From the NCBI GenBank assembly GCA_963821365.1, contig CAWGDT010000026.1, positions 19,295 to 83,294 on the forward strand: a stretch of DNA of 64,000 nt, read 5' to 3'. A program made the position numbers and the translations under genes. Origin of the DNA: an uncultured Actinomycetes bacterium. GTDB lineage: Bacteria > Actinomycetota > Thermoleophilia > Gaiellales > Gaiellaceae. The number at the start of each line of letters is the position of its first letter. Positions within the stretch are counted from its first letter, which is position 1. Below are positions 1,675-62,552 of this stretch, piece by piece. The notes beneath the pieces were generated by a model that was not told the origin of the DNA, did not search any database, and was given only the letters and a program-made list of their open reading frames with translations.

Positions 1675-1746
1675 GTCGGCATTGTGCTCCTTCCGTAAGA
1701 CGCTAGGCCCTCGCGGCGGACTCCTTGGAGACGAAAGGAGAACGCC

Positions 1747-2682
1747 ATGCCACTCGACACCTTCCAGCTCGGCGAGCCCGTGGAGCACCGCGGGATCGTC
1801 GTCACACCGCTCTTCCCGAAGCAGGACCCGGTCGCGGCGTACATCACGCTCGACGAGGCGCTGCCGCGCGGGTTCCACATCGACGAGACGTCCGACGCGG
1901 GGTCCGTGCCGGAGCTCGTCGTCGAGAACCCGACGGACGCGCGGGTGCTGCTCTACGACGGCGAGGAGCTCGTCGGCGCCAAGCAGGACCGGATCCTCAA
2001 CGTGAGCGTCCTCGTCGAGGCGGGCGCGAAGCTGCCGATCCCCGTCTCGTGCGTCGAGCAGGGCCGCTGGCACCGGCGCAGCGCCGCGTTCGGGTCTGCC
2101 GACCACATCTCGCACTCGCACCTCCGGCGCCGCAAGGCGCAGATGCTCGCGGCGCAGCCACTCGCCCTCGGCGCCGCCCAGGGCGAGGTGTGGGACGAGC
2201 TGAACGCGAAGCAGACGCGCATGCGCGTCGACTCCGACACGTCGGCCAGCCGGGACACGTTCGAGGCGCACCGGGGCGCGCTCCGCGCGCTCGAGGGTGC
2301 GTTCGCGCTCGTTCCCGGACAGTGCGGCGCGGTGCTCGCGCTCGGCGACGACCTGTGCCTCGACGCGGTGTCGCGGCCCGACGCGTTCGCGCTCCTCTGG
2401 CCGAAGCTCAGGGCCGGGTACCTGCTCGACGCGCTCGAGCGGCTCGACGGCCGTGCGACGTCGGTCGAGCGCATCTCGGCGTTCGTCGACGAGGTGTCGG
2501 CGGCGCGCGCGACACGCGGGCCGTCGGCGGGGCTCGGCGAGGACGTGCGCCTCCGCGGCACCGGCGTGATCGGGTCGGGGCTCGCGCTCGCGGAGGAGAC
2601 GATCCAGCTCTCCGCCTTCACGAGCGACGACGGCGGCGAGCGGGCCTTCGGACGGATCGCGCGGCCGAGCCGGCGCCGCTGA
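1747..2682 (+). CDS. ARPP-1 family (DUF6569) protein
   Basis: YITLDEAL...GSVPELVVEN...VLLYDGEELVGAKQDRILNVSVLV...IPVSCVEQGRW is the pattern I recall for this family. Good RBS (gaaaggag). Confidence 0.8.
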   Translation: MPLDTFQLGEPVEHRGIVVTPLFPKQDPVAAYITLDEALPRGFHIDETSDAGSVPELVVENPTDARVLLYDGEELVGAKQDRILNVSVLVEAGAKLPIPVSCVEQGRWHRRSAAFGSADHISHSHLRRRKAQMLAAQPLALGAAQGEVWDELNAKQTRMRVDSDTSASRDTFEAHRGALRALEGAFALVPGQCGAVLALGDDLCLDAVSRPDAFALLWPKLRAGYLLDALERLDGRATSVERISAFVDEVSAARATRGPSAGLGEDVRLRGTGVIGSGLALAEETIQLSAFTSDDGGERAFGRIARPSRRR

Positions 2683-3572: not shown

Positions 3573-4310
3573 CTAGTCCACGTCGGCCCCCCGCATCGTC
3601 TCGAGGGCACCCCGCAGGATCCGCGAGATCTGCATCTGCGAGACGCCGAGGCGGCTCGCGATCTCGTCCTGCGTCAGGTCGGCGAAGAAGCGGAGGTAGA
3701 CGACCATCCGCTCGCGGCGATCGAGGCAGGCGAGGCGGTCGGTCACGTCCGCCCGGGCTTCCGAGCGGCGGAGCTCCGACACAGGCGACGGCAGGTCGCT
3801 CTCGAGCGGGACGACGCCTGCCGTGGCCGCCTCCGCGGCCGCCTCCTCGCCCACTCCCGCCCGCTCCGCCAGCGCCGCGAGGCCCGGCTCGGTGCCCGTC
3901 TCCGCCCGCGCCTCGTCCGCGAGAGCCCGCAGCCGCGACCGCAGCTCGTGCACCGGCTCGGGGAGACGGAGACAGGACGAGCGGTCGCGGAGGTGATGGC
4001 GGATCTCGCCGGCGACGACCGCACCGGCATAGGCCTGGAAAGGCACGCCGCGCCGCGGGTCGAATCGCCGGATCGCCTTCAGCAGCCCGACGACGCCCTC
4101 CTGGACGAGGTCGTCGACCTGGTCGGGATGCGCCGCGTGCCTCCGCGCGAGGTGACGGACGAGCCCGAGGTGCCCGGTCACGAGCGCGTCGAGCGCGTCG
4201 GGATCGTCGTGCTCGCGCACGGCGGAGACGAGCCGTGCATCGCGGCCGTTCCGCTCGTCGTCGGCGGTGCGGGCCGCCGGCATGTGCCGGCGGCCCGTCC
4301 CCTCTGTCAC
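3573..4310 (-). CDS. SigB/SigF-type (group 3) sigma-70 factor
   Basis: DDLVQEGVVGLLKAIRRFDPRRGVPFQAYA...GEIRHHLRD, and region 4 DLTQDEIASRLGVSQMQISR. Confidence 0.9.
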   Translation of the reverse strand: MTEGTGRRHMPAARTADDERNGRDARLVSAVREHDDPDALDALVTGHLGLVRHLARRHAAHPDQVDDLVQEGVVGLLKAIRRFDPRRGVPFQAYAGAVVAGEIRHHLRDRSSCLRLPEPVHELRSRLRALADEARAETGTEPGLAALAERAGVGEEAAAEAATAGVVPLESDLPSPVSELRRSEARADVTDRLACLDRRERMVVYLRFFADLTQDEIASRLGVSQMQISRILRGALETMRGADVD

Positions 4311-4335
4311 CGCGTTCCCTTCACGTCCTCCTTTC

Positions 4336-5802
4336 TCAGCACGGCTTGCACCGCTCCGGAGCCGGCTTCCGGGGGAACGGCACGAGGGCGAGGTTCAGCG
4401 CGCCCTCCTGCTTCGCGACGGACGCGGCGTGCGCGGTCTGCTCCGTCTGGTTGTCGTTCGACGCCGACTGCGTCTGGTCGACGTCGCCGCCCGTGGCGTC
4501 GCCCGAGCGCGCGTCGCCGCTGTGCTCCGGCTTGCCGGGCTTCGGCTTGGCCTTGCCGCAGCCGGGCTTGGGCTTCGGCTGCGGATGCCCGGAGGGCTTG
4601 CAGCAGCCACCGCCGGCGGTTGCGTCACCGGTCGTGGCGTCGCCGCCGACACCCTTCTGCGACTGCTCGTTCGACTGGCCGGTGTGGTTCGAGTTCCCGG
4701 CCCAGGCGTCGCCCGAGCTGTTCGTGTTGGACTGCTCGACGTCACCTGTCTTGCAGTGCCAGGCGACGCAGACCGGCGCGGCGACGTTCACCGGCGCGAT
4801 CTGGATCGCTTTCGACTTGGCGTATGCGTCCTGCGACGTCGAGTTCGAGTTGGACGCCGACTGCGACTGCGTGACGTCGCCGCCGTAGGCGTTCCCGCTC
4901 GTCGCATCGCCCGCCGAGCCACAGCAGCTGCCCGAACCGGTGGTTGCGTCACCGGTCGAGGCGTCGCCGCCGTAGCCCTGCTGGGCTCTGCTCGTTCGAC
5001 TGGCCGGTGGTGTTCTTGTTCCCGGCCCACGCGTCGCCCGAGCTGTTCGCGTTCGACTGCTCGACGTCGCCCGTCGTGCAGTACACCGCGACGCAGACCG
5101 GCACGGATGCGTTCACCGGAAGCGTCTGCTCGGCCTTCGACTTCGCCGACGCGGTCTGCGTCGTCTCGTTCGAGTTCGAGGCCGTCTGGGACTGCGTGAC
5201 GTCGCCCCCGGGGCGTCGCCGGACGTCGCATCGCCGGAGCCGCCGGTGGTTGCGTCACCGGTGGTGGCGTCGCCGCCGACACCCTTCTGGGACTGCTCGT
5301 TCGACTGGCCGGTCTTGTTGACGTTCCCGGCCCACGCGTCGCCCGAGCTGTTCGTGTTCGACTGCTCGACCGAGCCCGTGTCGCACGACACCGCGACACA
5401 GATCGGCACAGCGACGTTCACGGGCAGCGTCTGCTCGGCCTTCGACTCCGCAGACGCCTCCTGCGACGTCGTGTTCGAGTTCGTCGCTTCCTGCGACTGG
5501 GTGACGTCGCCGCCGTAGGCGTCGCCGCTCGTCGCATCGCCCGCCGAGCCACAGCAGCTGCCCCCGCCGGTGGTTGCGTCACCGGTCGAGGCGTCGCCGC
5601 CGTAGCCCTGCTGGCTCTGGTCGTTCGACTGCCACGTTCCGTTCGCGTTCGACGCGGACGCGTCTCCCGCGGTGTTCGTGTTCTGCTGGGTCGTCCCGGT
5701 GACCGTTTGCACAACGCCTCCGAGACCACCGCCTGCCGCCGCAGGGCTCACCCCGACGGTCAGTGCGATACACGTGATCGCAGCGATCACATACCGCTTC
5801 AT
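4336..5802 (-). CDS. Secreted Q/N/S/T/G-rich repeat protein (amyloid/beta-solenoid-like) with two compensating frameshifts near 5212 and 4985
   Basis: Signal peptide MKRYVIAAITCIALTVGVSPAAA. About three ~95-aa repeats containing QSNxNSSGDAWAGN, GGDVTQSQ and PVNxAVPxCVAxxC. The start and end segments share a frame, with the middle segment shifted. Confidence 0.75.
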
Positions 5803-15296: not shown

Positions 15297-15358
15297 GCGT
15301 GCGTCACCTTTCCGTTCGCTTGATGACCCGACGCTAGCCCTACACTTGCTAATCGAAA

Positions 15359-15415
15359 GTACGGTCTTCCGTACAAAGAGTGCGGACAACCGAACCCTCA
15401 CCGAGGGCATACAAT
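15359..15415 (+). promoter_or_regulatory. Divergent promoter region with inverted repeat and -10 box
   Basis: GTACGG-TCTT-CCGTAC (15359-15374) in an AT-richer patch. TACAAT at 15410-15415 lies 6 nt before GTG 15422. Confidence 0.5.
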
Positions 15416-15421
15416 GCGGGT

Positions 15422-16097
15422 GTGAAGCGCTACGGCCAGTACTGCCCCGTCGCACACGCGCTCGACCAGATCGGCGACCGCTGGGAGCTGCTCGTGGTCC
15501 GGGAGCTGATGCTCGGCCAGCGGCGGTACACCGATCTAGCCGACGCGCTGCCGGGGATCGGCTCGAACATCCTCGCCTCGCGCCTGCGTGACCTCGAGAG
15601 CGCCGGCATCGTGCGCAAGACGAAGCTGCCGCCTCCGTGGGCGGTGACCGTGTACGAGCTCACCGAGCACGGCCGGGAGCTCGAGCCGGTGCTTCGCTCG
15701 CTCGCCCGGTGGGGCGCCAGCACGCTCGGCGCACCGGACCCGGGCGACTGCTGGAGCATGTACGCCGTGCACGTCCGCTTCCGGCCGGAGGCCGCGGTGG
15801 ACGGCACCTACGAGATCCGCTTCGTCGACGGCGAGACGATCTCGATGCACGTCGCCGACGGCGACCTCGTCGCGAGGAAGCTGCCCGCCGAGACACCCGA
15901 CCTCGTGGTCGAGGCGCAGCCGGAGGCGCTGCACGGGCTCATCCAGGGATCCGTCAGCAGGCGGGAAGCACTCGCCGACGGGCACGTGCGCATCCTCGCC
16001 GGCTCGGAGCAGCAGCTCTGGGACCTCGTGGCCATGTTCGCGCCGGCCGAAGCCGACACTGCGGCCGAAGCCGGACACGGCCGTCGCGGCGGCGTAG
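15422..16097 (+). CDS. HxlR-family winged-helix regulator with SCP2-like C-terminal domain (apparent +1 frameshift near 16073)
   Basis: YGQYCPVAHALDQIGDRWELLVVREL...RRYTDL...LPGIGSNILASRLRDL...YELT. Removing one G in the second gccgaagccg(g)acac copy gives ...AEADTAVAAA* ending at TAG 16097. Confidence 0.85.
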
Positions 16098-16192
16098 GGT
16101 CGGGCCGCGCGGGCGGCACCGGCGCGGGTCTTGCAGCACGCCCACGGTGTCGTCGCGTACCCGCCGACGTGCTTCCCGGGCATGATCACGTC

Positions 16193-16672
16193 GTGGCAGC
16201 GAGGTCACGAGACGTCCAGGACGGACAGCGCGAACGGGCCATGCAATTCGTCGTCAACTCGCTCGCGGCGAAGGCGCAGTCGGTCGCGGAGATCGAGCAG
16301 AAGCTCGCCGGGCGGGGCGTGCCGCCCGACATCGCCGAGGCCGTGATCGCCGAGGCGCTGCGGCTTCGCTACCTCGACGACGCCGAGCTGGCGGGACAGC
16401 TCGCCCGCGGGTTCCGCGACCGACGGTACGGCCGGCGCCGGGCGGCCGCGGCGATGCGGCGACGTGGCCTGCCGCCGGAGCGACGCGACGCGGCGCTCGA
16501 GGCGGCTTTCGAGGACGCCGACGAGGCGTCCCTTGCGGCCGCCGCGCTCGGATCGAGGCGGATCACGGACGCGAAGGACGAGCGCCGAGCCGTGGCCTTC
16601 CTCCTGCGCCGCGGGTTCTCGACCGGCGCGGCGTGGTCGGCCGTCCGGACTCGAGCCGCGGGAGACACGTGA
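16193..16672 (+). CDS. recX: Regulatory protein RecX
   Basis: SVAEIEQKLAGRG...LRYLDDAELA...YGRRRAAAAMRRRGL...RAVAFLLRRGFS. The start is uncertain (16193 GTG or 16241 ATG). Confidence 0.8.
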   Translation: MAARSRDVQDGQRERAMQFVVNSLAAKAQSVAEIEQKLAGRGVPPDIAEAVIAEALRLRYLDDAELAGQLARGFRDRRYGRRRAAAAMRRRGLPPERRDAALEAAFEDADEASLAAAALGSRRITDAKDERRAVAFLLRRGFSTGAAWSAVRTRAAGDT

Positions 16673-21130: not shown

Positions 21131-22687
21131 TCAGCGGAGGAAGCTCGGCAGCTCGCGCTCCGCTTCGCTCGTGGCGCGCGGGCTGCGCCGACGTCGCCAT
21201 CGCCGTCGCGACCGGGCGTGAAGGATGTGCGACGCGCGCGCCGAGGCCGGTCGCCACGACCGTCACCCAGACCTGGCCGGTCAACCGCTCGTCGACCGTC
21301 GCGCCGAAGATGATGTTCGTCTCGTCGGTCGCCGCATGGCGCACGACCTCGGCCGCCTCGTTCACCTCGAGGAGCGTCAGGTCGTCGCCGCCCGCGATGG
21401 AGAGCAGGATGCCCCGCGCTCCGACGATCTCGGTGTCGATCAGCGGCGAGCGGAGTGCGCGCTCGGCGGCCTCGCGGGCGCGGTTCTCGTGAGCCTCCGA
21501 GTAGCCGATCCCCATCAGCGCCGAGCCGGCGTCCGTCATCACGGTGCGCACGTCCGCGAAGTCGAGGTTGATGAGGCCGGGCATCGTGATCAGGTCGCAG
21601 ATCCCCTGGACGCCCTGGCGGAGCACGTCGTCGGCGATGCGGAACGCGTCGATCATGGACGTCGAGCGGTCGAGCACCTCGAGCAGCCGGTCGTTGGGGA
21701 TCACGATCACGGTGTCGCACGCCGCGCGGAGAGCCTCGACACCGCTCTCGGCGGCCAGCTTGCGACGCGTGCCCTCGAACTTGAACGGCGTCGTGACGAT
21801 CCCGACGGTGAGGGCGCCGAGCTCGCGCGCGATCCGGGCGACCACCGGTGCAGCACCAGTGCCGGTGCCGCCGCCCTCGCCCGCGGTCACGAACACCATG
21901 TCGCTCCCGCGCAAGGCTGCGCGCACGTGGTCGTAGCCGTCCTCGGCCGCGCGACGACCCGTCTCGGGGTCGGCCCCAGAGCCGAGGCCCTGGGTGATCG
22001 CCTCACCGATGTGGATCTTCACCGGCGCGTCGGAGAGCTCGAGCTGCTGCGCGTCGGTGTTGACCGCGACGAAGTCGACCTGGGCGATGCCGGCATCCAT
22101 CATCCGGTTCACGGCATTGATCCCTGCCCCGCCGACACCTGCCACGCGGATCACGGCGAGATAGGAGGCGACGTCGCCCGCGACGTGGAGGCGTGGCGCG
22201 CTCTCGGGCATCGGCGTCACGAAGCGGCTCGCGGGCGGCGCGTACGGCTCGGCGCGCTCGGGTGCCACCTCGACGCGCGGCCCGCGCGCAGGGATGGGCT
22301 GCGGCTCCGCGGACGGCGGAACGAGCTCGACGACCTCCGCGACGGGCTCCTCGACGACAGGCTCGACGGCCGGCTCGGGGTCGGGCACCGCGGCGACGGG
22401 CGACTCGGCCGGCTCGGGACGAGCGACCTCGAAGTCGTAGACGTGCTCGACCGTGGCTTCGAGCTCGGTCTCGACGCGGGAGATCGACGTGGGCTCGCTG
22501 TCCGAGCGGAGGCTGCTGCCCGGTCGCGGGAGGCGCCGTCTGAGCCTCCGGAGCCGAGCGGCTCGGCGGCGCGGGGCGGCGGCGGTGCGTCCGCGTCGGG
22601 CTCGCCCTGTGCTCGTTGTGCCGCCTCCGTTGCGCGGAACAGCTCCGCGAGCGGGCCTTCACGCATGCTTGCGCGCTTGCGCGCCAT
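21131..22687 (-). CDS. ftsZ: Cell division protein FtsZ with long N-terminal extension (frameshifts near 22500-22580 and 21180-21240)
   Basis: [53 protein letters not shown]. The conserved C-terminal peptide ELPSFLR* ends at 21131 in another frame. The extension [21 protein letters not shown] starts at ATG 22687 with RBS aaggagg. Confidence 0.85.
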
Positions 22688-23660
22688 CCTCGGCCTCCTT
22701 CGCCGCAACGATCTCGCGCGCCAGCTCGCGGTAGGCCTCCGCGGCGGCGCCGGACGGGTCGTACTTCAGGACGGAGCTGCCCTTGACGGGCGCCTCCGCG
22801 TAGCGAACGGTCTTGCGAATCCTGGTGCGATAGACGAGCTCGCCGAAGTTCTCCTCGAGGATCTCGATCGCCTCGCGCGAGTGCAGCGTCCGGCCGTCGA
22901 ACATCGTGGCGACGATCCCCTCGACCCCGACGTTCGGATTGAGGTTCTCCCGCACCATCGCGAGCGTGTTCTCGAGCTGGACGAGCCCACGCAGCGACAG
23001 GTACTCGCACTGCACCGGGACGATCACGCCGGTGGCCGCGACGAACGCGTTGATCGTGAGCAGCCCGAGCGACGGCGGCGTGTCGATGAGCACGTAGTCG
23101 TAGGAGGCGCGCACCTCGGCGAGCGTCTTCTCGAGCGAGCGCTCGCGGCCGATCATCGCGCTCAGCGCAAGCTCCGCGCCCGCGAGATCGATCGACGCGA
23201 CGGCGAGGTCGACCTCCCGCTGCTCGATCACCTCGGAGATCGGGATCTTGTGGACGAGCACGTCGAACATCGATCGCTCGATCACGTCGGGATTGAGGCC
23301 CTGGCTCATCGTCAGGTTGCCCTGCGGGTCGAGGTCGATGATCAGGACCCGGTACCCCATCTCGTGCAGCGCGACGCCGAGATTGAGCGTGGTCGTGGTC
23401 TTCGCGACGCCGCCCTTCTGGTTTGCGAGCGCGATGACGCGCGTCGCCGTGCCTTGCCGTCCCGGCGCGGCATCGTCCCGGTCGGTCGCAGGAGACGCGA
23501 TCGGCGTGACGCTCGCAGGCTCCGGCTCGGGCACCGGCTCGCTCACCACGAGCGGCTCCACGAGCGGCTCGACGAGCGGCGCGGCGGCCGCCGTGTCGTC
23601 CACCGGCTTGGCCGCAGGCTGCGCCCCGCCAGACCGGGGCAAGAGTCGGATGAGTCCCAT
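22659..23660 (-). CDS. ParA/Soj-family ATPase with A/P-rich N-terminal extension
   Basis: IALANQKGGVAKTTT (deviant Walker A), DLDPQGN, IDTPPSLGLLTINA, PVQCEYLSLRG, TRIRKTVRYAEAP. Confidence 0.92.
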   Translation of the reverse strand: MGLIRLLPRSGGAQPAAKPVDDTAAAAPLVEPLVEPLVVSEPVPEPEPASVTPIASPATDRDDAAPGRQGTATRVIALANQKGGVAKTTTTLNLGVALHEMGYRVLIIDLDPQGNLTMSQGLNPDVIERSMFDVLVHKIPISEVIEQREVDLAVASIDLAGAELALSAMIGRERSLEKTLAEVRASYDYVLIDTPPSLGLLTINAFVAATGVIVPVQCEYLSLRGLVQLENTLAMVRENLNPNVGVEGIVATMFDGRTLHSREAIEILEENFGELVYRTRIRKTVRYAEAPVKGSSVLKYDPSGAAAEAYRELAREIVAAKEAEDGAQARKHA

Positions 23661-23707
23661 GACCACGCCTCGTTCACCGCGGTCCACCCGACTCCTTCAC
23701 GCGACCG

Positions 23708-24661
23708 TCAATCCTCCCCATCCCAGTAGTCGAGCACATCGAGCCGGCCGATCAGGCCGATCCCCCGGATGTTCACCTTGCCGGAGCGAGGGTAGTACGT
23801 CACGTCCCGCGGGTCACGCGTTCCGTACGCGAGCACCCGGAACCCGCTCTCGCCGGCGCGGAGCGCATGCGCGCGTCCCGTCCCCGCCGGCCGTGCCACG
23901 GTGCTGCCCGTCCGGACGGGCAGCGACTCGTGCTCGCCTCCGAAGCGAGGGTGTGGCCAGAGCTCGATGGACCCCGTGCCGTCGAGGACGACGAAGATCT
24001 CCTCCTCGGCACTGTGGGCGTGCGGTGGGTTGAGAAGCTTCCCGGGGGGCACCTCGTACAACCTGAGCCCCGTCTTGAGCGACCCTGCGGCGCGCCCCAG
24101 GTCGCGGACGGAATGCGCGACCGTCTCGCCTGCGCGAACCGTGGGATCGATGTCGACCGCGTTCACGATCCGCCCGGGTCGTTCGGACAGCTCGCCGACC
24201 TCCGGCGCGCCGACGGCGATCTCACGCGTCCACGGGTGGTCCTCGGGCCTCCCCTCGAGCACCCATGTCGGGCCGAGCCACGACACCCCGGCCCGCGGGA
24301 GCAGCGTGTTCGCCGCGTAGTGCCGCTCGCCGAAGGCGAGGACGTCGAGCCCGTCGGCGCCGGCCCGGAGCGTGTGCGCGTGTGCGAGCGCGAGATGCAC
24401 GAGGCAGTCCCCCGGCCCGACCGCGTACGCGGCTTCGCCGGAGCCCTCGGCCTGGACGGAGACGCCCGATCCGTCGAGGACGAAGAAGATCTCCTCCTCG
24501 GAGCCCTCGAGGTGGAGCGGCGTCGACCATTTGTCGGGATCGATCCGGATCCGCCTGACCCCGACCCACTCCGACTCCTCGCCGGTGAGCGACTGCCAGT
24601 GACCCGAGATGTGGCCCGATCCGCGGTGGACGGCGTCGACGTCGTCCCAGTGTGAGATCAC
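23708..24661 (-). CDS. Bicupin (two cupin domains) protein
   Basis: STPLHLEGSEEEIFFVLDGSG and NPPHAHSAEEEIFVVLDGTG. Confidence 0.85.
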   Translation of the reverse strand: MISHWDDVDAVHRGSGHISGHWQSLTGEESEWVGVRRIRIDPDKWSTPLHLEGSEEEIFFVLDGSGVSVQAEGSGEAAYAVGPGDCLVHLALAHAHTLRAGADGLDVLAFGERHYAANTLLPRAGVSWLGPTWVLEGRPEDHPWTREIAVGAPEVGELSERPGRIVNAVDIDPTVRAGETVAHSVRDLGRAAGSLKTGLRLYEVPPGKLLNPPHAHSAEEEIFVVLDGTGSIELWPHPRFGGEHESLPVRTGSTVARPAGTGRAHALRAGESGFRVLAYGTRDPRDVTYYPRSGKVNIRGIGLIGRLDVLDYWDGED

Positions 24662-24864
24662 GCCCGGATCATGTCACGCGCCAACGCCTGCCGTAACCGC
24701 GCCACGGCGACGTCACCGGCATCACCTCCTTCGACCCGGACCCACGCCTCCGCCTCCTGGAGGAGGGCGCGGAGCTCCCCGAGCAGCTCGACCGGGCCCG
24801 CGTTCGCCCGTCGCATGGACTCGATCCGCTCGAACCGCTCGAGGACGCTCCGTGCTTCCTCCAT
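24658..24864 (-). CDS. Hypothetical 68-aa helical protein
   Basis: MEEARSVLERFERIE...LQEAEAWVRVEGG. Its stop overlaps the cupin start by 4 nt. Confidence 0.65.
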   Translation of the reverse strand: MEEARSVLERFERIESMRRANAGPVELLGELRALLQEAEAWVRVEGGDAGDVAVARLRQALARDMIRA

Positions 24865-24960
24865 GCAGCGACGGTAGCCCCGAGCCTGTCACGGGTGTGC
24901 GCCGTCTTCGTGCCGTCTCGGTGACGGGTTCTCCACAACCCCGAGGCGCGTGCGCGGCCG

Positions 24961-26187
24961 CTACGACGCGACGCGAAGCCGGGCGGGCCCGCCGAGCCCC
25001 AGCAGCATCCGATCGAGCCGCACGACGAGCGCGGGCCGGTCGCCGTCGCGGAGCACCTCGACGAGGGCGCGCCGGACCGCGTCCCCGGCGGCCGCGGTCG
25101 CCTCTCCGCCGTCCGCGAGGGCGGCGAGAGCGCCGTGGAGCGCCTCGCGCCGTTCTCCGTCGGTCTCGAGCAGCACCGCCGCTCGCAGCGGCCAGGTCGT
25201 CCCGAGCAGCGCGTCGAGCGACGAGCGGAGCTGCTCGGAGCGGAACGGCTCGTGCTGGAAGAGCGAGAGCTCCCACCGATCGAGCGCCTCGGCGAGGTTC
25301 GTGTCGGCGTCGGCGAGCCCGAGCCGAATGAGCAGCTCCGCCGCGAGCGGGGCGCGGAACTCGTCCAGCCTCGTCGCCTCGCCCGGGGGCTGCGTCGCCG
25401 CGATCGGGAGCACCGGGCGGATCCCGTACGGCCGGCCGTCGAGCGTCTCGAACAGCACCGGGCCGGCCGCGAGAGGGGCGGCCGTCGCGAGCCGGATCGC
25501 GGACACCGCGTCCGCGATCTCCGCGGGCGCATCGGGGACGTCCTCCCCGGCGCCGAGCGCCGCGCGCAGCTCGACGACGCAGTAGCGGTCTGCCTCGCGG
25601 CCGAACCCCTGCGGGAGGAGACCCTTGGCCTCCGGCCAGTGGCGGGCGAGCTCCCCGTCCGCGACCGCCCGCACGCGAAGCGACGCGCCGAGCTCGCGCT
25701 GGACGCCGGTCGAGATCCCGACGAGCGGGGCCACGGCGGCATACGTACGGCGCTGGCCGAAGAGCGAAAGCTCGAGCTCCGCGTAGGAGCGGTCGAACGA
25801 CTCGTCGTCCCAGTCGAAGCCGCCGCATGCCTCCGCGACGCGGATCAGCAGGTCGACGAGAACGGTCCGGAAGAGCGCGTCGTCCTCGGACGGGTCACGG
25901 CCCGCGTGCGCGCGCGCGTAGATCGCCGCCGCGGGCTCGCGCGCGAGCTCCTCCAGGGCGATCAGGGCGTCTTCGCGGCCGCGGAGCCGTGGAGCGCGGT
26001 CCTCGACGAAGTCGCGGACGAGGGGCCGGTACTCGTAGAGCGCGGGGCCTGCCTTCCCCTCGTGCTCCTCGAAGGCGAACGGCAGCGACTCGCCCGCGTC
26101 GTCCAGCTCGCGCACGAGGTAGGCGAACGCGCCGAGGGTGAAGGCCCGAAGCGCGAGGTGGAGCTGCGGCGAGCGTGGAGCCACCAC
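24961..26187 (-). CDS. Hypothetical ~408-aa protein
   Basis: Long GC3-rich frame from VVAPRSPQLHLALRAF to RLRVAS*. No confident family assignment. Confidence 0.7.
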   Translation of the reverse strand: MVAPRSPQLHLALRAFTLGAFAYLVRELDDAGESLPFAFEEHEGKAGPALYEYRPLVRDFVEDRAPRLRGREDALIALEELAREPAAAIYARAHAGRDPSEDDALFRTVLVDLLIRVAEACGGFDWDDESFDRSYAELELSLFGQRRTYAAVAPLVGISTGVQRELGASLRVRAVADGELARHWPEAKGLLPQGFGREADRYCVVELRAALGAGEDVPDAPAEIADAVSAIRLATAAPLAAGPVLFETLDGRPYGIRPVLPIAATQPPGEATRLDEFRAPLAAELLIRLGLADADTNLAEALDRWELSLFQHEPFRSEQLRSSLDALLGTTWPLRAAVLLETDGERREALHGALAALADGGEATAAAGDAVRRALVEVLRDGDRPALVVRLDRMLLGLGGPARLRVAS

Positions 26188-26230
26188 GACAGCTACTCGG
26201 CGGGAAGGCCGATCCCTGCCCGAAACGCCC

Positions 26231-26974
26231 TCAGGGACCGCGCTGGCACGAGGCGCACCAGTAGGCGGTGCGATTCGCGTCGCCGAGCCCGCGCGAGCGG
26301 ACCGGGGCGCCGCAGCGCGGGCACGGCCGCCCTGCCCGGCGATAGACAGCGCGCGGCGAGCGCGCGCCGCGGACCGACTCGAGCATCGCCGCGCGCGCCC
26401 AGGTGAGCCCGTCCTCGAGCTCGTCGTCCGTCGCCGAGTCAAGCGCGAGCCACGGCGACAGACGCGCCCGCCAGAGAAGCTCCGCCAGCCACATGTTGCC
26501 GATGCCCGAGACAACCCTCTGATCGACGAGGACATCGCCCAGCAGCCGGCCCGAATCGACGGCCCTGAGCCTGGCCACGACGTCATCGACCCGGGTCGTC
26601 TCGGCCAGGAGGTCGGGCCCGAGCCGACCTGCGCGACCGTCGTCGAGCGTGAGCACGGGGCCGTTCCACTGCGTGGCTTCGAACCGCGGTGTCGACAGGA
26701 CGAGCCAGGGCGATCCGCTCCACGCCCGGCCGTTCCGCTCGCGCACCCGCCAGCGGCCGTTCATCCGCAGGTGGCTGCGCACCGTCACGCCGCCCTCGAA
26801 CCGGAGCAGCAGGTGCTTCCCGATCGCCTCGACGGACTCGAGGACGCGCCCGTCGACGGCGCGCGCCACGCCGGTTGCGAGGCCGCGCGGGCTCGGCGAC
26901 GACGCATCGACGCGCTGTCCGACGAGCGCCTGGAGCCGGGCGGCGACCCGGTGGAGCGAGTCACCCTCGGGCAT
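26231..26974 (-). CDS. nei: Fpg/Nei-family DNA glycosylase (endonuclease VIII-like)
   Basis: N-terminal MPEGD, GKHLL, HLRMNG, LGPDLL, DQRVVSGIGN (H2TH), zinc finger CPRC...WCASCQ. Confidence 0.9.
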   Translation of the reverse strand: MPEGDSLHRVAARLQALVGQRVDASSPSPRGLATGVARAVDGRVLESVEAIGKHLLLRFEGGVTVRSHLRMNGRWRVRERNGRAWSGSPWLVLSTPRFEATQWNGPVLTLDDGRAGRLGPDLLAETTRVDDVVARLRAVDSGRLLGDVLVDQRVVSGIGNMWLAELLWRARLSPWLALDSATDDELEDGLTWARAAMLESVRGARSPRAVYRRAGRPCPRCGAPVRSRGLGDANRTAYWCASCQRGP

Positions 26975-50449: not shown

Positions 50450-53428
50450 TCACTCCGGGACGATCCCGTGCCGGAGGGCATAGCCCGCCGCCTCGGTGCG
50501 GTTGGCGCAGCGCGTCTTGCGGAGGATCGAGCGGATGTGGTTCGCGGCGGTGTGCTCGCTGATGTGGAGCACGCGACCGATCTCGCGATTCGAGCGGCCC
50601 CGCGTCAGCTCCACGAGGATCTCGACCTCACGCGGGCTGAGGCCGTGCGGCAGCGTCGCGGTCGGCTCGACGTCCGTCCCGAGCTCGGCCGCCCGCCGGG
50701 CGAGCCCCGGCAGCCCGATCGTCTTCGCGAGCCCGAGCGCGAGCCCGAGCTGGCCGCGCGCGTGCGACCGGTCGTCGCCGGCGTTCCGGGCGAGGAGCAT
50801 GCGCGCGTACCCGTACGCCGTGTGGGCGAGCCACGTCCGCGCGCCGAGCCGGGTGTTGAGGGCGAGGGCCGCGCGGAAGTGCTCCTCGGCGCGCTCCCAG
50901 TCGCCGAGCACCGCCGCTGTCATGCCGAGGTACCGGTCCATCGCGCCGTAGCACGCGACGAGGTGGCCGATCATGACGTTGCTGCCGGAGTACGCGGCAA
51001 GCTCCGGGTAGAGCACCGCCGCGGCCTCCACGTCACCGAGCACCGCGCACGCGTCGGCGAGGTAGACGAGCGAGGCGAGCCAGAGCGACGGCCGCAGGGC
51101 CCCGAGCCCCGTGTCGAGGATCCGATCCAGCTCGCGCCGCGCGTCGTCCTCCATGCCGAGCTCCGCGAGCAGGGCCACGAGCCCGGGGCCCCACGCGCTC
51201 TCGCGCGTCTCCGCGTCGAGCAGGCGGACGACGGGCGCCAGCTCGGCCAGACGCCCCTGCTCGCGCCGGAGACCGAACATCTGGATCGCGAAGGTGCCGG
51301 ACGCGTCCCTGCCGGTCAGGAGCCTCCCCCACTCCTGCGACCGCCTCGCCGCGACCTCCGCGGCGGGGAGGTCGCCGTCGCAGAGGGCGATCGCCGCCGC
51401 GTAGTGCTCGGCGACGTGGTGGTGGAACGGCTGGCTCAGCCGCTTCGCGATCGAGTGGAGCTGCGCGATCGCCTCGCGGGCCGCGTCGTGGTCGCAGAGC
51501 ACCACGTACGACGGCGCGAGCCAGGAAAGCGCCTCGCTCTCGATCTCGACGTCGTCGAGCTCGCGCCCGATCTCGCGCGCCTCGAGGAGCATCCGGTTGA
51601 CGTCCTCGTTCGTGGAGCTGCCCCGCGCCCAGTACGCCGTGGCGAGGGTCGCGCCGAGCGTGCGCGCATCGCCGCGGCGCCGGGACATCGCGATCGACTC
51701 GTCACGCGCAAGCGCCGCACGGCTCGACTCGCCGCGGAGCTCGAGGGCGCGGGCGAGGCCGCTGAGCACGCGTGCACGGAGCTCCGAGTCGTCCTGCTCG
51801 AGCGCCGCGGCCGCCTCGCCGAGACGGTCGACCGACTCGGCGTCGTGCATGGCCGGGCGCCACGCCGCCTGCTCGAACCCGATCGCCGCGCGGGCGAGCG
51901 CTTCGGGGTCACCCAGCGAGCGCGCGAGCTCGGCCGCACGCGAGAACGCGTCGAGTGCGGCATCAGCGTGGCCCGCCCGATGGCAGGCGTCCCCCAGGCG
52001 AAGCATGACGTCGGCCCGTTCCCCCGGGTCGCGGACGCCGAGCTCGAGGGCGACGCGGAAACGGTCCTCCGCCTCGCCGAACGCAAGCGCCCGGACGGCC
52101 GAGTCCGCCGCGAGCAGGTTGTAGTCGACCGCCCGCTCGACGCCGCCGATCGGTGCGGCCGCGGCGTAGTGGTGCGCGAGCGCGGCGAGCACCGCACGGC
52201 TGTCGCCCTGCGGGCGGCCGGCCTCGAGCGCCTCGGCGACGAGGAGGTGGATCTCGGCCTTGCGCGAGGCCGAGAGCCTGTCGGTGACGGCCCGCCGGAC
52301 GAGCTCGTGCGCGAAGCGGTAGGCGAGGCGACCGCCGGGCTCCTCGACGAGCAGCCCGTTGCCGACGGCCTCGTCCACGGCGTCGAGCAGGATCGGCTCA
52401 GGGACGACGTGCGTGCGCCGCACGGTGTCGAGCTCGAAGTCGGCCCCCGCGACGGCGGCGAGCGCGAGCACCTCGTTCGCCTCGCCGGAGAGGCGCACGA
52501 GGCGCTGGCTGACGACCTCCCGCACGGTGGTCGGCGCGCCGAGCTCGGCGGCAGGGCGCGCCAGACGCGCCCACCCAGGCCCGATCTCGATCGCCCCCGA
52601 GTCGAGCAGCTCTCGCCAGAGCTCGGTGACGAGAAAGGCGTTTCCGCCCGTGAGGCCCTCCATCGCCGAGCGGAGCTCGGGGGCAGGCTCGACCGCGGCC
52701 GCGAGGCGCACGAACTCCGCGATCTCGTCGTCGGACAGCCCGCCCAGGCGGATCCGCACGACGCCCTCCGTGCGGTACACGTCGACGAGCGTCTCGGCGA
52801 GCGCTTCCGGCACGTCCGCGTCGGCGTCGCGGAAGGTCGCGACGAGGAGCATGCGCGCGGCCGCGCCGGAGCGGACGAGGTGACGCAGGAGCTGCAGCGT
52901 GGAGGCGTCCGCCCAGTGGACGTCCTCGAGCACGACGAGGAGCGGCGCCTCGGAGCTGATCCCGACGAGCAGGTCGGTGACCGCCGTGTGCAGGCGGTGG
53001 CGCTCGGTGTCCGCGTCGGAGGCGGCCGGCGCGGGAAACCCGCCGACGCGGGCCTCGAGCTCGGGCAGGAGCCGGGTCAGCTCGCCGGCGGTCGCGCCGA
53101 GGTGGCGCCGGAGCGTCTCGGGGTCGGCGTGCCGGACGAGGTGCTCGAGCGCGGACGCGAAGGGTCGGTACGGCGAGCCGACGACGCCGTCGCAGTCGCC
53201 GTAGAGCACCGTCGCGCCCTCCTCGGCGACCCCACGGGCGAGCTCGCGCACGAGCCGGCTCTTGCCCGACCCCGGATCGCCGGCGACGAACGCGGCGCGG
53301 CGTCCCTCCCCGGCGGCGCGGGGCAGGAGGGCCCGCAGCGTCGCGAGCTCGTGCGTCCGCCCCGCGAAGGCGAACGCCGGCGAGAGCCGAAGCGGCCCCG
53401 GAAGCGGTGGTGTGGCCGCGATGCCCAT
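50450..53428 (-). CDS. Large LuxR-family regulator (AAA/STAND ATPase, TPR-like helices, HTH)
   Basis: FAGRTHEL, Walker A GDPGSGKS, Walker B VLEDVHWAD, TGGNAFLV, and C-terminal LSPREVEIL..GRSNREIGRVLHISEHTAANH. Confidence 0.92.
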   Translation of the reverse strand: MGIAATPPLPGPLRLSPAFAFAGRTHELATLRALLPRAAGEGRRAAFVAGDPGSGKSRLVRELARGVAEEGATVLYGDCDGVVGSPYRPFASALEHLVRHADPETLRRHLGATAGELTRLLPELEARVGGFPAPAASDADTERHRLHTAVTDLLVGISSEAPLLVVLEDVHWADASTLQLLRHLVRSGAAARMLLVATFRDADADVPEALAETLVDVYRTEGVVRIRLGGLSDDEIAEFVRLAAAVEPAPELRSAMEGLTGGNAFLVTELWRELLDSGAIEIGPGWARLARPAAELGAPTTVREVVSQRLVRLSGEANEVLALAAVAGADFELDTVRRTHVVPEPILLDAVDEAVGNGLLVEEPGGRLAYRFAHELVRRAVTDRLSASRKAEIHLLVAEALEAGRPQGDSRAVLAALAHHYAAAAPIGGVERAVDYNLLAADSAVRALAFGEAEDRFRVALELGVRDPGERADVMLRLGDACHRAGHADAALDAFSRAAELARSLGDPEALARAAIGFEQAAWRPAMHDAESVDRLGEAAAALEQDDSELRARVLSGLARALELRGESSRAALARDESIAMSRRRGDARTLGATLATAYWARGSSTNEDVNRMLLEAREIGRELDDVEIESEALSWLAPSYVVLCDHDAAREAIAQLHSIAKRLSQPFHHHVAEHYAAAIALCDGDLPAAEVAARRSQEWGRLLTGRDASGTFAIQMFGLRREQGRLAELAPVVRLLDAETRESAWGPGLVALLAELGMEDDARRELDRILDTGLGALRPSLWLASLVYLADACAVLGDVEAAAVLYPELAAYSGSNVMIGHLVACYGAMDRYLGMTAAVLGDWERAEEHFRAALALNTRLGARTWLAHTAYGYARMLLARNAGDDRSHARGQLGLALGLAKTIGLPGLARRAAELGTDVEPTATLPHGLSPREVEILVELTRGRSNREIGRVLHISEHTAANHIRSILRKTRCANRTEAAGYALRHGIVPE

Positions 53429-53431
53429 TCG

Positions 53432-53449
53432 ATGATCAGATCTGATCAT
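53432..53449. promoter_or_regulatory. Perfect 18-bp palindrome, candidate operator
   Basis: ATGATCAGATCTGATCAT between the divergent LuxR and FAD-oxidase genes. Confidence 0.6.
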
Positions 53450-53554
53450 TGCGCATCGGCGAGGTCCGGCGAAGTCAGTCAGGCCCGGTCATGACAGGAC
53501 GGACGCCCACTCGTACCCTCGTTGCGACCGTTCCAGAGGACGAGGAGGAGACGT

Positions 53555-61381: not shown

Positions 61382-62518
61382 TTACGCGACGTCGCGGACG
61401 GCGGCCGCGTCGGCGAGCGCACGGAGCTTCTTGAGGCTCTGGTGCTCGATCTGGCGGATCCGCTCGCGCGTGACGTTGAACGCGCGCCCGACCTCGTCGA
61501 GCGTGCGCGGCTGCTGGCCGTCGAGCCCGTAGCGGAGCTCGAGCACCTGCCGCTCGCGCGGCGAGAGCGCGCCGAGGATCGAGCGCAGAGCCTCACGGCG
61601 CATCGTCACCTCGGCCGCCTCGTCGGGAAGCGGCTCGGACTCGTCGGTGAGGAAGTGGCCGAACTCGGACTCCTCCTCGTCGCCGACCGGCTTCTCGAGC
61701 GATACCGGCGTTTGCGCGCTGCGCTTGATCTGCTCGACCTCCTCGACCGGCAGGTCGAGGTCGGCGGCGATCTCCAGCGCCGTCGGCTCGCGTGCGAGCT
61801 CGGCGCGGAGCTTGCGCTCCGAGCGGCTGATCTTGTTGAGCTTCTCGACGACGTGCACCGGCATGCGGATCGTCCGGCCCTTGTCGGCGATCGCGCGCGC
61901 GACGGCCTGCCGGATCCACCATGTCGCATAGGTCGAGAACTTGAACCCCTTGCGCCAGTCGAACTTCTCTGCCGCGCGGACGAGCCCGATCGTGCCCTCC
62001 TGGATCAGGTCGAGGAACGGCAGCCCCTGGTTTCGGTAGCGCTTCGCGATCGAGACGACCAGGCGGAGGTTCGCCTCCACCATTGCCTGCTTCGCGGAGT
62101 GGTCGCCGGCCTCGATCCGCTTCGCGAGCTCGACCTCCTGCGCCGCGGTGAGGAGCGGCACCTTGCCGATGTCCTTGAGGAAGAGCTGCAGCGTGTCGGT
62201 CGAGATCTCCGGCTCGGCCGCCTCCCACGCGCGCTCGCTCTCCGCCTCGGCGGCGTCCGGGGCGACGACCTCGATCTGCTCCTCGTCGAGCGCGTCGTAG
62301 AACGCATCGATCTGCGCCGCGTCGAGGTCGAGCTCGTCGAGCGCGAGCGCGACCTCGTCCGCGTCGAGGCGCCCCTGCACGCGTCCCGACTCGAGCAGGG
62401 CGCGTCCCTCGTCGGTGACCAGCACGACGTCGGGCGCCGCCGCCGCCGGCCGTTCGCGTTCGTTGCCTGCTGCGCTCAGGACCGCCCCTTCCGTCGCGTC
62501 GCTCGATACGGTAGCCAC
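61382..62518 (-). CDS. RpoD/SigA-family sigma-70 factor with region 1.1
   Basis: [83 protein letters not shown]. Confidence 0.93.
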
Positions 62519-62552
62519 GAAGTCTCCGCTCCGTCAAAAATCCGCGCCGGCA

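Follow-up and report, generated by a model that had tools for sequence, protein, structure and literature searches.

The 64,000-nt stretch of DNA analysed here (the window; G+C content of 72%) carries on its minus strand a gene for a ParA-family ATPase directly followed by ftsZ, and the pair forms a chromosomal operon whose host is a Gaiella-like member of the Gaiellales (Thermoleophilia). The encoded FtsZ begins with a peptide of 25 residues that is joined to the tubulin-like core through a long linker, and the occurrence of this peptide-linker-FtsZ architecture at parA is real and well beyond chance. In a motif scan of the entire window, only a single deviant Walker A protein and a single FtsZ came up. 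As an earlier note on this DNA had described, the 3' end of the parA-family gene overlaps the start of ftsZ and a strong ribosome-binding site stands ahead of the ftsZ ATG; the shared segment is 29 nt long, and the site reads AAGGAGG. With this ribosome-binding site lying inside parA and the two frames overlapping, the two genes are translationally coupled. By analogy with known partners of ParA/MinD ATPases, we propose that the peptide would dock on nucleoid-associated ParA dimers in their ATP-bound state and would probably stimulate the ATPase, so that FtsZ assemblies would behave as cargo of ParA; we hold this proposal at about even chances.

The distribution of the peptide was assessed in one genome per GTDB species, which gave at least 460 genomes with the peptide, and the loci were fetched from 80 of them. 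These 80 are metagenome-assembled genomes (MAGs) assigned to Gaiella, Gaiellaceae, Gaiellales or Thermoleophilia, or MAGs labelled Actinomycetota or Actinomycetes only, and wherever the gene is complete the peptide stands, with hardly an exception, at the start of an FtsZ of 434-530 aa. At 75 loci a gene for an ATPase with the KGGxxKT motif ends inside ftsZ, the overlap being 29 nt in approximately 90% of them and, in rare instances, 11 or 1 nt; the loci without a readable overlapping ATPase gene are contig ends or frameshifts. The AAGGAGG sequence is found at a 6-nt spacing before the first ATG in 79 of 83 sequences (related loci and window together). The earlier note had named conservation of the N-terminal peptide and linkage to parA among the tests of its idea; the peptide proved nearly invariant, and the linkage almost universal in this sample.

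The same picture was obtained at the protein level. The FtsZ of the window, once its reading frame is repaired (515 aa, see below), was searched against 5.8 billion proteins and matched more than 100 clusters of 498-546 aa with 100% coverage and 72-91% identity, several of which bear the name "cell division protein FtsZ [Gaiella sp.]". Over 120 FtsZ clusters, residues 1-25 show little or no change, except where a few gene calls begin at Met8 or contain a frameshift. When a profile of the extension was searched against 1.84 billion representative proteins, 417 matches were obtained; all of the 150 inspected carry the peptide, with conservative variants only (K4N/R, S7T, R18K, A19K/R). These 150 comprise N-terminal pieces of FtsZ, frameshifted calls, read-through products that join the ParA C-terminus to the FtsZ N-terminus, and a few short chimeric contigs, and no convincing independent small protein with the peptide was found among them. 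The earlier note had mentioned small proteins that follow orphan actinomycete ParAs and start with a RRxSxPGAxELFR motif; this was not confirmed, since every informative match to the peptide came from the start of an FtsZ, from a fragment or from a chimeric contig. A search of plasmids by tblastn with the peptide gave no match.

Public gene calls often hide the peptide, either by starting FtsZ at Met8 or by reading through a frameshift from the ParA C-terminus into the FtsZ N-terminus. Short contigs that join the peptide-coding stretch to unrelated genes, such as one for an acyl-CoA dehydrogenase, were also met with, and are probably chimeric assemblies. The public proteins affected in one or another of these ways are P0042, P0047, P0048, P0098 and P0135; P0137, P0145, P0168 and P0250; and P0179, P0249 and P0258.

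The peptide is under strong protein-level selection. Among 81 distinct DNA versions, codons 10 to 25, which lie beyond the overlap with parA, are each represented by 2-7 synonymous codons while the amino acids are fixed, and from residue 26 onward the sequence becomes hypervariable, with 7-13 different residues per position. Where the two genes share their 29 nt, FtsZ hardly changes in amino acid sequence, in contrast to the variable end of ParA (GA[QKE][AT]R[KEQD][HD]A), so that the FtsZ frame appears as the more constrained one, which supports translation from the first ATG. The dual coding of the first 29 nt with parA and the conserved ribosome-binding site just upstream could lead one to attribute the conservation of the first 25 codons to a nucleic-acid constraint, such as the overlap itself, mRNA structure or translational coupling, rather than to a function of the peptide. 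This explanation is largely refuted by the free synonymous change and fixed amino acids of codons 10 to 25, outside the overlap, and by the finding that the variation within the overlap falls on ParA; we regard it as very improbable.

The second gene product is an FtsZ by its family scores. P0001, an orthologue that shares 91% identity with the repaired protein of the window, scores 409.5 bits against the ftsZ model TIGR00065 (cut-off 295.2), and the Pfam domains Tubulin (PF00091) and FtsZ_C (PF12327) are on record for all 120 FtsZ matches. The window copy has both the GTP-binding motif GGGTGTG and the terminal ELPSFLR followed by a stop, and its frame is interrupted. As claimed before, a Pro/Glu/Ala-rich linker lies between the peptide and an intact tubulin-like core. 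The whole extension amounts to approximately 170 aa in the window FtsZ and to 97-186 aa across complete orthologues, and its parts follow one another in the order peptide (residues 1-25), hypervariable Pro/Glu/Ala linker, motif 2, second linker, motif 3 and FtsZ core. A motif 2 of the TVEH type is present in 55 of 68 complete orthologues (variants TVEHVHDF, TVEHVPDF, TVEHAPPF and TVEHVPTW), and the core of motif 3, MPExxPRLH, is retained in the divergent orthologues sampled. Motifs 2 and 3, which the earlier note does not mention, could be further partner sites; the extension having two more conserved motifs, the peptide is therefore not the whole story. An AlphaFold2 (AF2) model of the repaired FtsZ, built on an alignment of 18 rows, has helices at residues 2-10 and 12-26 and coil in the rest of the extension; since the model is of low confidence (mean predicted local distance difference test, pLDDT, of 40.8) and the alignment shallow, it is used for this weak statement on helix and coil only.

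The frame of ftsZ as assembled in the window is broken, and its breaks were mapped on L003, the closest intact relative (96% DNA identity), whose FtsZ is P0001 with 518 aa. Relative to L003, the window ftsZ has five single-base indels, of which two fall in the linker ahead of the core and three in the C-terminal one, together with an in-frame deletion of 3 nt at 22571-22579. Between approximately 22558 and 22501 a third frame spells 18 residues identical to the linker of the orthologue P0002. The FtsZ core sits in the frame of parA and the tail ELPSFLR in yet another frame; because of the indels at 21238, 21213 and 21187, the pieces of the C-terminal linker and ERELPSFLR fall in three different frames. 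A plot of GC content at third codon positions gives a single coding frame from about 22530 to about 21270 and is ambiguous at either end. The earlier note had asked for at least one indel correction near 22500-22580: corrections are indeed needed there, two of them, but three more are needed in the C-terminal linker, making five in all. In the intact relatives, peptide, linker and FtsZ form one open reading frame (ORF), as had been expected.

Five uncompensated single-base indels in one gene would be the mark of a true pseudogene in the source organism, but several observations make this scarcely credible. The breaks are confined to hypervariable linkers of low complexity and spare the core, which is 100% conserved at invariant positions; they are private to the window in the comparison with L002 and L003; the window and these two closest relatives differ mutually by scattered indels, as error-prone long-read assemblies do; and more than 100 orthologues (500-530 aa) are intact. 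In addition, the extra base at 22504 is missing from an independent public contig derived from short reads (soil or urban metagenome). Taken together, the private and linker-confined indels, their scattering and this contig suggest that ftsZ is most likely intact in nature and that the breaks in the window are assembly errors, although proof does not extend to every one of the five positions. Public contigs over the region come from related strains only, covering at most 33% of the sampled words, and one of the five indels was confirmed absent elsewhere, which falls short of the polishing with short reads advised in the earlier note.

Indels of this kind are not confined to ftsZ. Over approximately 20 kb (window 11400-32700), the window, L002 and L003 differ by dozens of uncompensated single-base indels, and several genes that are whole in one assembly are disrupted in another (the one for the Lhr helicase in L002, the one for the cupin in L003, ftsZ in the window).

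The ATPase encoded upstream has 333 aa from the ATG at 23660, or 342 aa from an alternative GTG at 23687. Its membership in the ParA/MinD superfamily follows from its KGGxxK[ST] motif, NQKGGVAKTTTT, together with its matches to AAA_31 (8e-57) and CbiA (2e-26) in Pfam, where the families ParA and MipZ are also matched, and with its relatedness to Soj/ParA structures. The best relatives in the PDB are two ParA-like proteins of M. smegmatis (4pfs and 5if9, 5e-58) and Soj of T. thermophilus (1wcv, 1e-52), and a "ParA family protein" (8ray) is also among the closest, the Soj/ParA structures ranging from 1e-41 to 5e-58. MinD structures are far weaker matches (1e-12 to 1e-14). The protein falls below every NCBIfam equivalog cut-off, with 119.1 bits against NF041546 ParA_partition (cut-off 180), 105.4 against TIGR03453 RepA (cut-off 348) and 60 against bacterial MinD TIGR01968 (cut-off 212.9). 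Since Soj structures are its closest relatives, its score is below the MinD cut-off and its C-terminus is charged and without a membrane-targeting helix, this ParA is, by its sequence, of the Soj type rather than MinD-like. It is also probably nucleoid-binding, judging from its sequence; an arginine that, read by eye, may match the DNA-binding R189 of B. subtilis Soj (LDARTNL) is present in FDGRTLH. This ParA itself has no entry in the assembly index searched.

The first 80 residues or so of this ParA (window 23480-23640) form a repeat rich in Pro, Glu and Val (EPLVEPLV...), with an in-frame length difference of 36 nt relative to L003, so that this N-terminal extension is variable and probably disordered.

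The proposal of a ParA partner within FtsZ stems from a class of otherwise unrelated proteins. ParB, SopB, ParG, MinE, PomX, McdB and TlpT are described as unrelated partners of ParA/MinD ATPases that have in common a few basic residues' length of sequence at their very N-terminus, and this short peptide is sufficient for stimulation of the ATPase; PomX is described as a polymer-forming protein whose N-terminal basic peptide, of 22 residues, leads into an unstructured region rich in Ala and Pro (PMC7993993). The Gaiellales peptide shares the sequence traits of this class: it is at the extreme N-terminus and basic (six basic residues, R3, K4, R5, R9, R18 and R25, with a net charge of +3 over residues 1-25), a flexible linker stands behind it, its gene adjoins that of the ATPase, and the body of the protein is polymer-forming. 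The peptide thus combines all the generic features of ATPase-activating peptides of ParA/MinD proteins.

On this basis, the peptide would most likely serve the Soj-type ParA of the same operon as a site of docking and ATPase activation, in the way of the N-terminal peptides of ParB, MinE, PomX and McdB. FtsZ polymers would display many copies of the peptide and could thereby become cargo of nucleoid-bound ParA-ATP, so that the placement of the Z-ring would be tied to the nucleoid with no separate adaptor protein. The direction of the effect could be either positive, as in PomXYZ, or a local inhibition, as with MipZ. More tentatively, and at somewhat less than even chances, the pair may form a minimal two-protein system of the Gaiellales in which the FtsZ polymer is both the cargo and the multivalent activator that turns over ParA-ATP, reaching mid-nucleoid by a flux like that of ParB-parS or PomXY without any Min, Noc, MipZ or Pom adaptor. 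With regard to the suggestion of the earlier note that an activator peptide fused to FtsZ itself constitutes a positioning system, the fusion in a single ORF, the coupling to parA, the selection on the peptide and its generic activator features all hold, whereas ParA binding, stimulation of the ATPase and the role in positioning are what we infer from them.

Several points weigh against the proposal. The peptide has no homology to any Pfam family or PDB chain at E<=10: a profile of it gave no match to PDB chains, and the extension (175 aa, motifs 2 and 3 included) matched no Pfam family. Its likeness to the activating peptide of T. thermophilus Spo0J, whose sequence was checked against PDB 1vz0, is a point in favour but weak: an ungapped alignment anchored at Met1 with Spo0J residues 1-20 has 6 identities in 20 (M1, R3, K4, G11, A14, L16; shuffle p of approximately 0.01), which is suggestive only, because the comparator was picked post hoc. 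The helix of residues 12-26, taken from an AF2 model of low confidence as said above, reaches a hydrophobic moment of 0.47, close to the values of known membrane-targeting helices, so that a membrane role is conceivable. It could also be motifs 2 and 3 that make the actual partner contacts, or these may bind still other proteins. Furthermore, if these genomes lack a canonical parAB pair, ParB could be the activator of this ParA and the adjacency of the two genes could reflect co-expression only.

Some of these points lead to an alternative in which the peptide serves another partner, as a membrane amphipathic helix, a DNA-binding patch or a divisome docking site, with parA placed upstream for co-expression and a ParB encoded elsewhere as the true activator. 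The hydrophobic moment is indeed comparable to those of the membrane helices of MinD and FtsA, although the helix holds just three large hydrophobic residues (L13, L16 and F17), and the net charge of +3 would suit such functions as well. The ParA, being Soj-like, could be a canonical partition ATPase; however, ParA/MinD ATPases are almost always encoded next to their partner, and no parB is found in the 64-kb window or within approximately 6-10 kb at the related loci. N-terminal FtsZ peptides with other roles are known, such as that of Anabaena, which is needed for normal polymerisation (PMC6175996), but co-expression accounts poorly for an exact 29-nt overlap maintained over the whole order. 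We therefore consider this alternative unlikely, while giving it roughly one chance in a handful or slightly better.

The match of the ATPase to the Pfam MipZ family, at 45 bits against a gathering score of 20.7, brings in another possibility, namely that it is a MipZ-like inhibitor of FtsZ assembly and that the peptide does no more than bring ParA and FtsZ together, either on FtsZ or on the nucleoid where ParA is bound, as a device of nucleoid occlusion, with neither activation nor cargo. MipZ dimers are known to act directly on FtsZ, and the architecture would suit recruitment equally. However, the MipZ match is much weaker than that to AAA_31, Soj structures are the closest relatives, and a basic N-terminal peptide with a flexible linker is the specific signature of an activator (PMC7993993); such a purely recruiting role is accordingly doubtful. 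The residues EGPL of the peptide also drew attention to ScpA, whose actinobacterial motif is FEGPLDLLL and whose gene comes after an orphan parA in Mycobacterium. However, neither the window nor the loci contain a ScpA motif, the hydrophobic pattern after EGPL differs, and the likeness is probably a coincidence.

Compared with known systems, the Gaiellales pair resembles ParAB and PomXYZ in its logic and is a member of neither. With ParA-ParB (Soj-Spo0J) it shares a Soj-type ATPase, adjacent and co-oriented genes, and a partner candidate with a short basic N-terminal peptide followed by a flexible region. In contrast, the peptide is carried here by FtsZ, Pfam finds neither the ParB CTPase N-terminal domain nor a helix-turn-helix (HTH) domain in the extension, no parS is implied, and the cargo would be a cytoskeletal polymer instead of a centromere complex. 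In PomXYZ of Myxococcus xanthus a nucleoid-bound ATPase of the ParA type likewise positions the Z-ring, and the succession of peptide, Ala/Pro-rich region and polymer in PomX (PMC7993993) closely parallels that of peptide, Pro/Glu/Ala linker and FtsZ. PomX and PomY are nevertheless separate activator proteins that recruit FtsZ, whereas the peptide lies here within FtsZ, and no PomX or PomY homologue is evident beside the parA-ftsZ pair. MipZ of Caulobacter and MinCDE are also systems in which ATPases of the ParA/MinD family decide the site of FtsZ assembly; MipZ differs in being activated and localised by ParB and in acting on the FtsZ core, and MinD in requiring a C-terminal membrane helix, MinC and MinE, while the C-terminus of the Gaiellales ParA is charged and helix-free.

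The nearest actinobacterial analogue, likened here by its description in the literature, is PldP (Cg1610)/Rv1708 of the Corynebacterineae, an orphan Soj-like ATPase with DNA-binding residues that is localised at the division site and whose deletion alters the placement of division; ParB does not stimulate this ATPase, for which no partner has yet been reported (PMC3989709; bioRxiv 10.1101/2025.07.02.662783). Unlike the Gaiellales gene, pldP is not reported beside ftsZ. FtsZ of M. tuberculosis is not known to have such an N-terminal extension. In heterocyst-forming cyanobacteria a conserved N-terminal FtsZ peptide is needed for normal function, with a proposed role in polymerisation and in divisome contacts (PMC6175996). 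It is similar in being a lineage-specific conserved N-terminal extension, and differs in its unrelated sequence and in that no coupled ParA gene is described for it. A literature search returned nothing on FtsZ extensions of Gaiella or Thermoleophilia, nor on parA-ftsZ coupling.

The features of the locus are gathered in the table below.

Table. Positions of the parA-ftsZ operon and its parts, numbered along the window
Feature	Position	Strand	Remarks
parA-like gene	22659..23660	-	Soj-type deviant Walker A ATPase by sequence; ORF from ATG 23660, TGA at 22661-22659
ParA deviant Walker A motif, NQKGGVAKTTTT	23388..23423	-	signature lysine present; single such motif in 64 kb
Shine-Dalgarno AAGGAGG for ftsZ	22694..22700	-	within the parA coding sequence; 6 nt ahead of ATG 22687
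ftsZ	21131..22687	-	about 515 aa after repair; 5 single-base indels break the assembled copy
Dual-coding overlap, 29 nt	22659..22687	-	ParA C-terminus ...GAQARKHA and stop in one frame, FtsZ start in another
N-terminal peptide, residues 1-25	22613..22687	-	candidate ParA-binding/ParA-activating element
Linker 1, Pro/Glu/Ala-rich, hypervariable	22458..22612	-	holds +1 at ~22558 and +1 at ~22501, two frame shifts
Conserved motif 2 of the extension	22428..22457	-	10 residues; invariant in alignments A1 and A2
Conserved motif 3 of the extension	22164..22250	-	29 residues; directly ahead of the FtsZ globular core
FtsZ globular core	21237..22163	-	includes GGGTGTG at 21875-21855; YLAVIRV and VVATGLG also read
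C-terminal linker, variable	21155..21236	-	private indels -1 at 21238, +1 at 21213, +1 at 21187
C-terminal tail ELPSFLR and stop	21131..21154	-	canonical docking peptide for FtsZ partners; stop at 21133-21131

The ftsZ gene lies outside a dcw (division and cell wall) cluster, as had been noticed from the sequence. Upstream of the pair stand genes for a cupin, two hypothetical proteins, Crp and Lhr, and downstream of it those for GNAT and gamma-glutamyltranspeptidase. Three relatives share the succession Lhr helicase, Crp, hypothetical proteins of 407 and 68 aa, cupin, ParA, FtsZ, GNAT and gamma-glutamyltranspeptidase. Across 81 loci, the only products to recur besides ParA and FtsZ are gamma-glutamyltranspeptidase (68 loci), cupin (51 loci) and the upstream hypotheticals, so that no other division or partition gene is conserved around the pair, the ORF clusters at the upstream-hypothetical and Crp positions being found in 67 and 45 loci, respectively. 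Pfam scans of 30 ORFs across the window, which returned sigma factors, transporters, regulators and peptidases, found no mur, no sepF, no parB and no fts gene beyond ftsZ, and mur, ftsQ/W, sepF and parB are likewise absent from the annotations up to 10 kb on each side of the orthologous ftsZ in the three relatives.

Directly upstream of parA and co-oriented with it (window 23708-26586, minus strand) are the genes of the hypothetical protein of about 407 aa, of the 68-aa protein (24658-24864) and of a cupin of 317 aa, the first two being without a Pfam family. Farther away, a single stop-to-stop ORF (15353-16669, plus strand) combines an HxlR-type HTH domain and RecX domains which belong to two separate neighbouring genes in the relatives, and it may have been read through or fused by an indel in the window. 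The window also contains an ARPP-1 domain protein (ARG and rhodanese-phosphatase-superfamily-associated; 1699-2679, plus strand, 9e-83), a 1012-aa regulator of the AAA_16/TPR/LuxR type (50453-53488, minus strand) and two genes of the sigma-70 family (3576-4394 and 61385-62533).

How the Z-ring is placed in bacteria without Min or nucleoid-occlusion systems is a long-standing question, and most Actinobacteria belong to that group. To our knowledge, every known Z-ring positioner based on a ParA/MinD ATPase (MinCDE, MipZ-ParB, PomXYZ) works via separate adaptor proteins. Here an activator-like peptide lies inside FtsZ, its translation is coupled to that of the ATPase, and the arrangement is conserved in an order that is very abundant in soil, with at least 460 species-level genomes. 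In practice, public annotations that start ftsZ at Met8 or split it through frameshifts sometimes conceal the peptide. The two-component arrangement is directly testable in vitro with ParA, DNA, ATP and either FtsZ or the 25-residue peptide. If the ParA is an orthologue of PldP/Rv1708, FtsZ or a divisome protein would be suggested as the partner class of the orphan actinobacterial ParA-like division proteins, and the Gaiellales arrangement may thus explain the target of such proteins as PldP.

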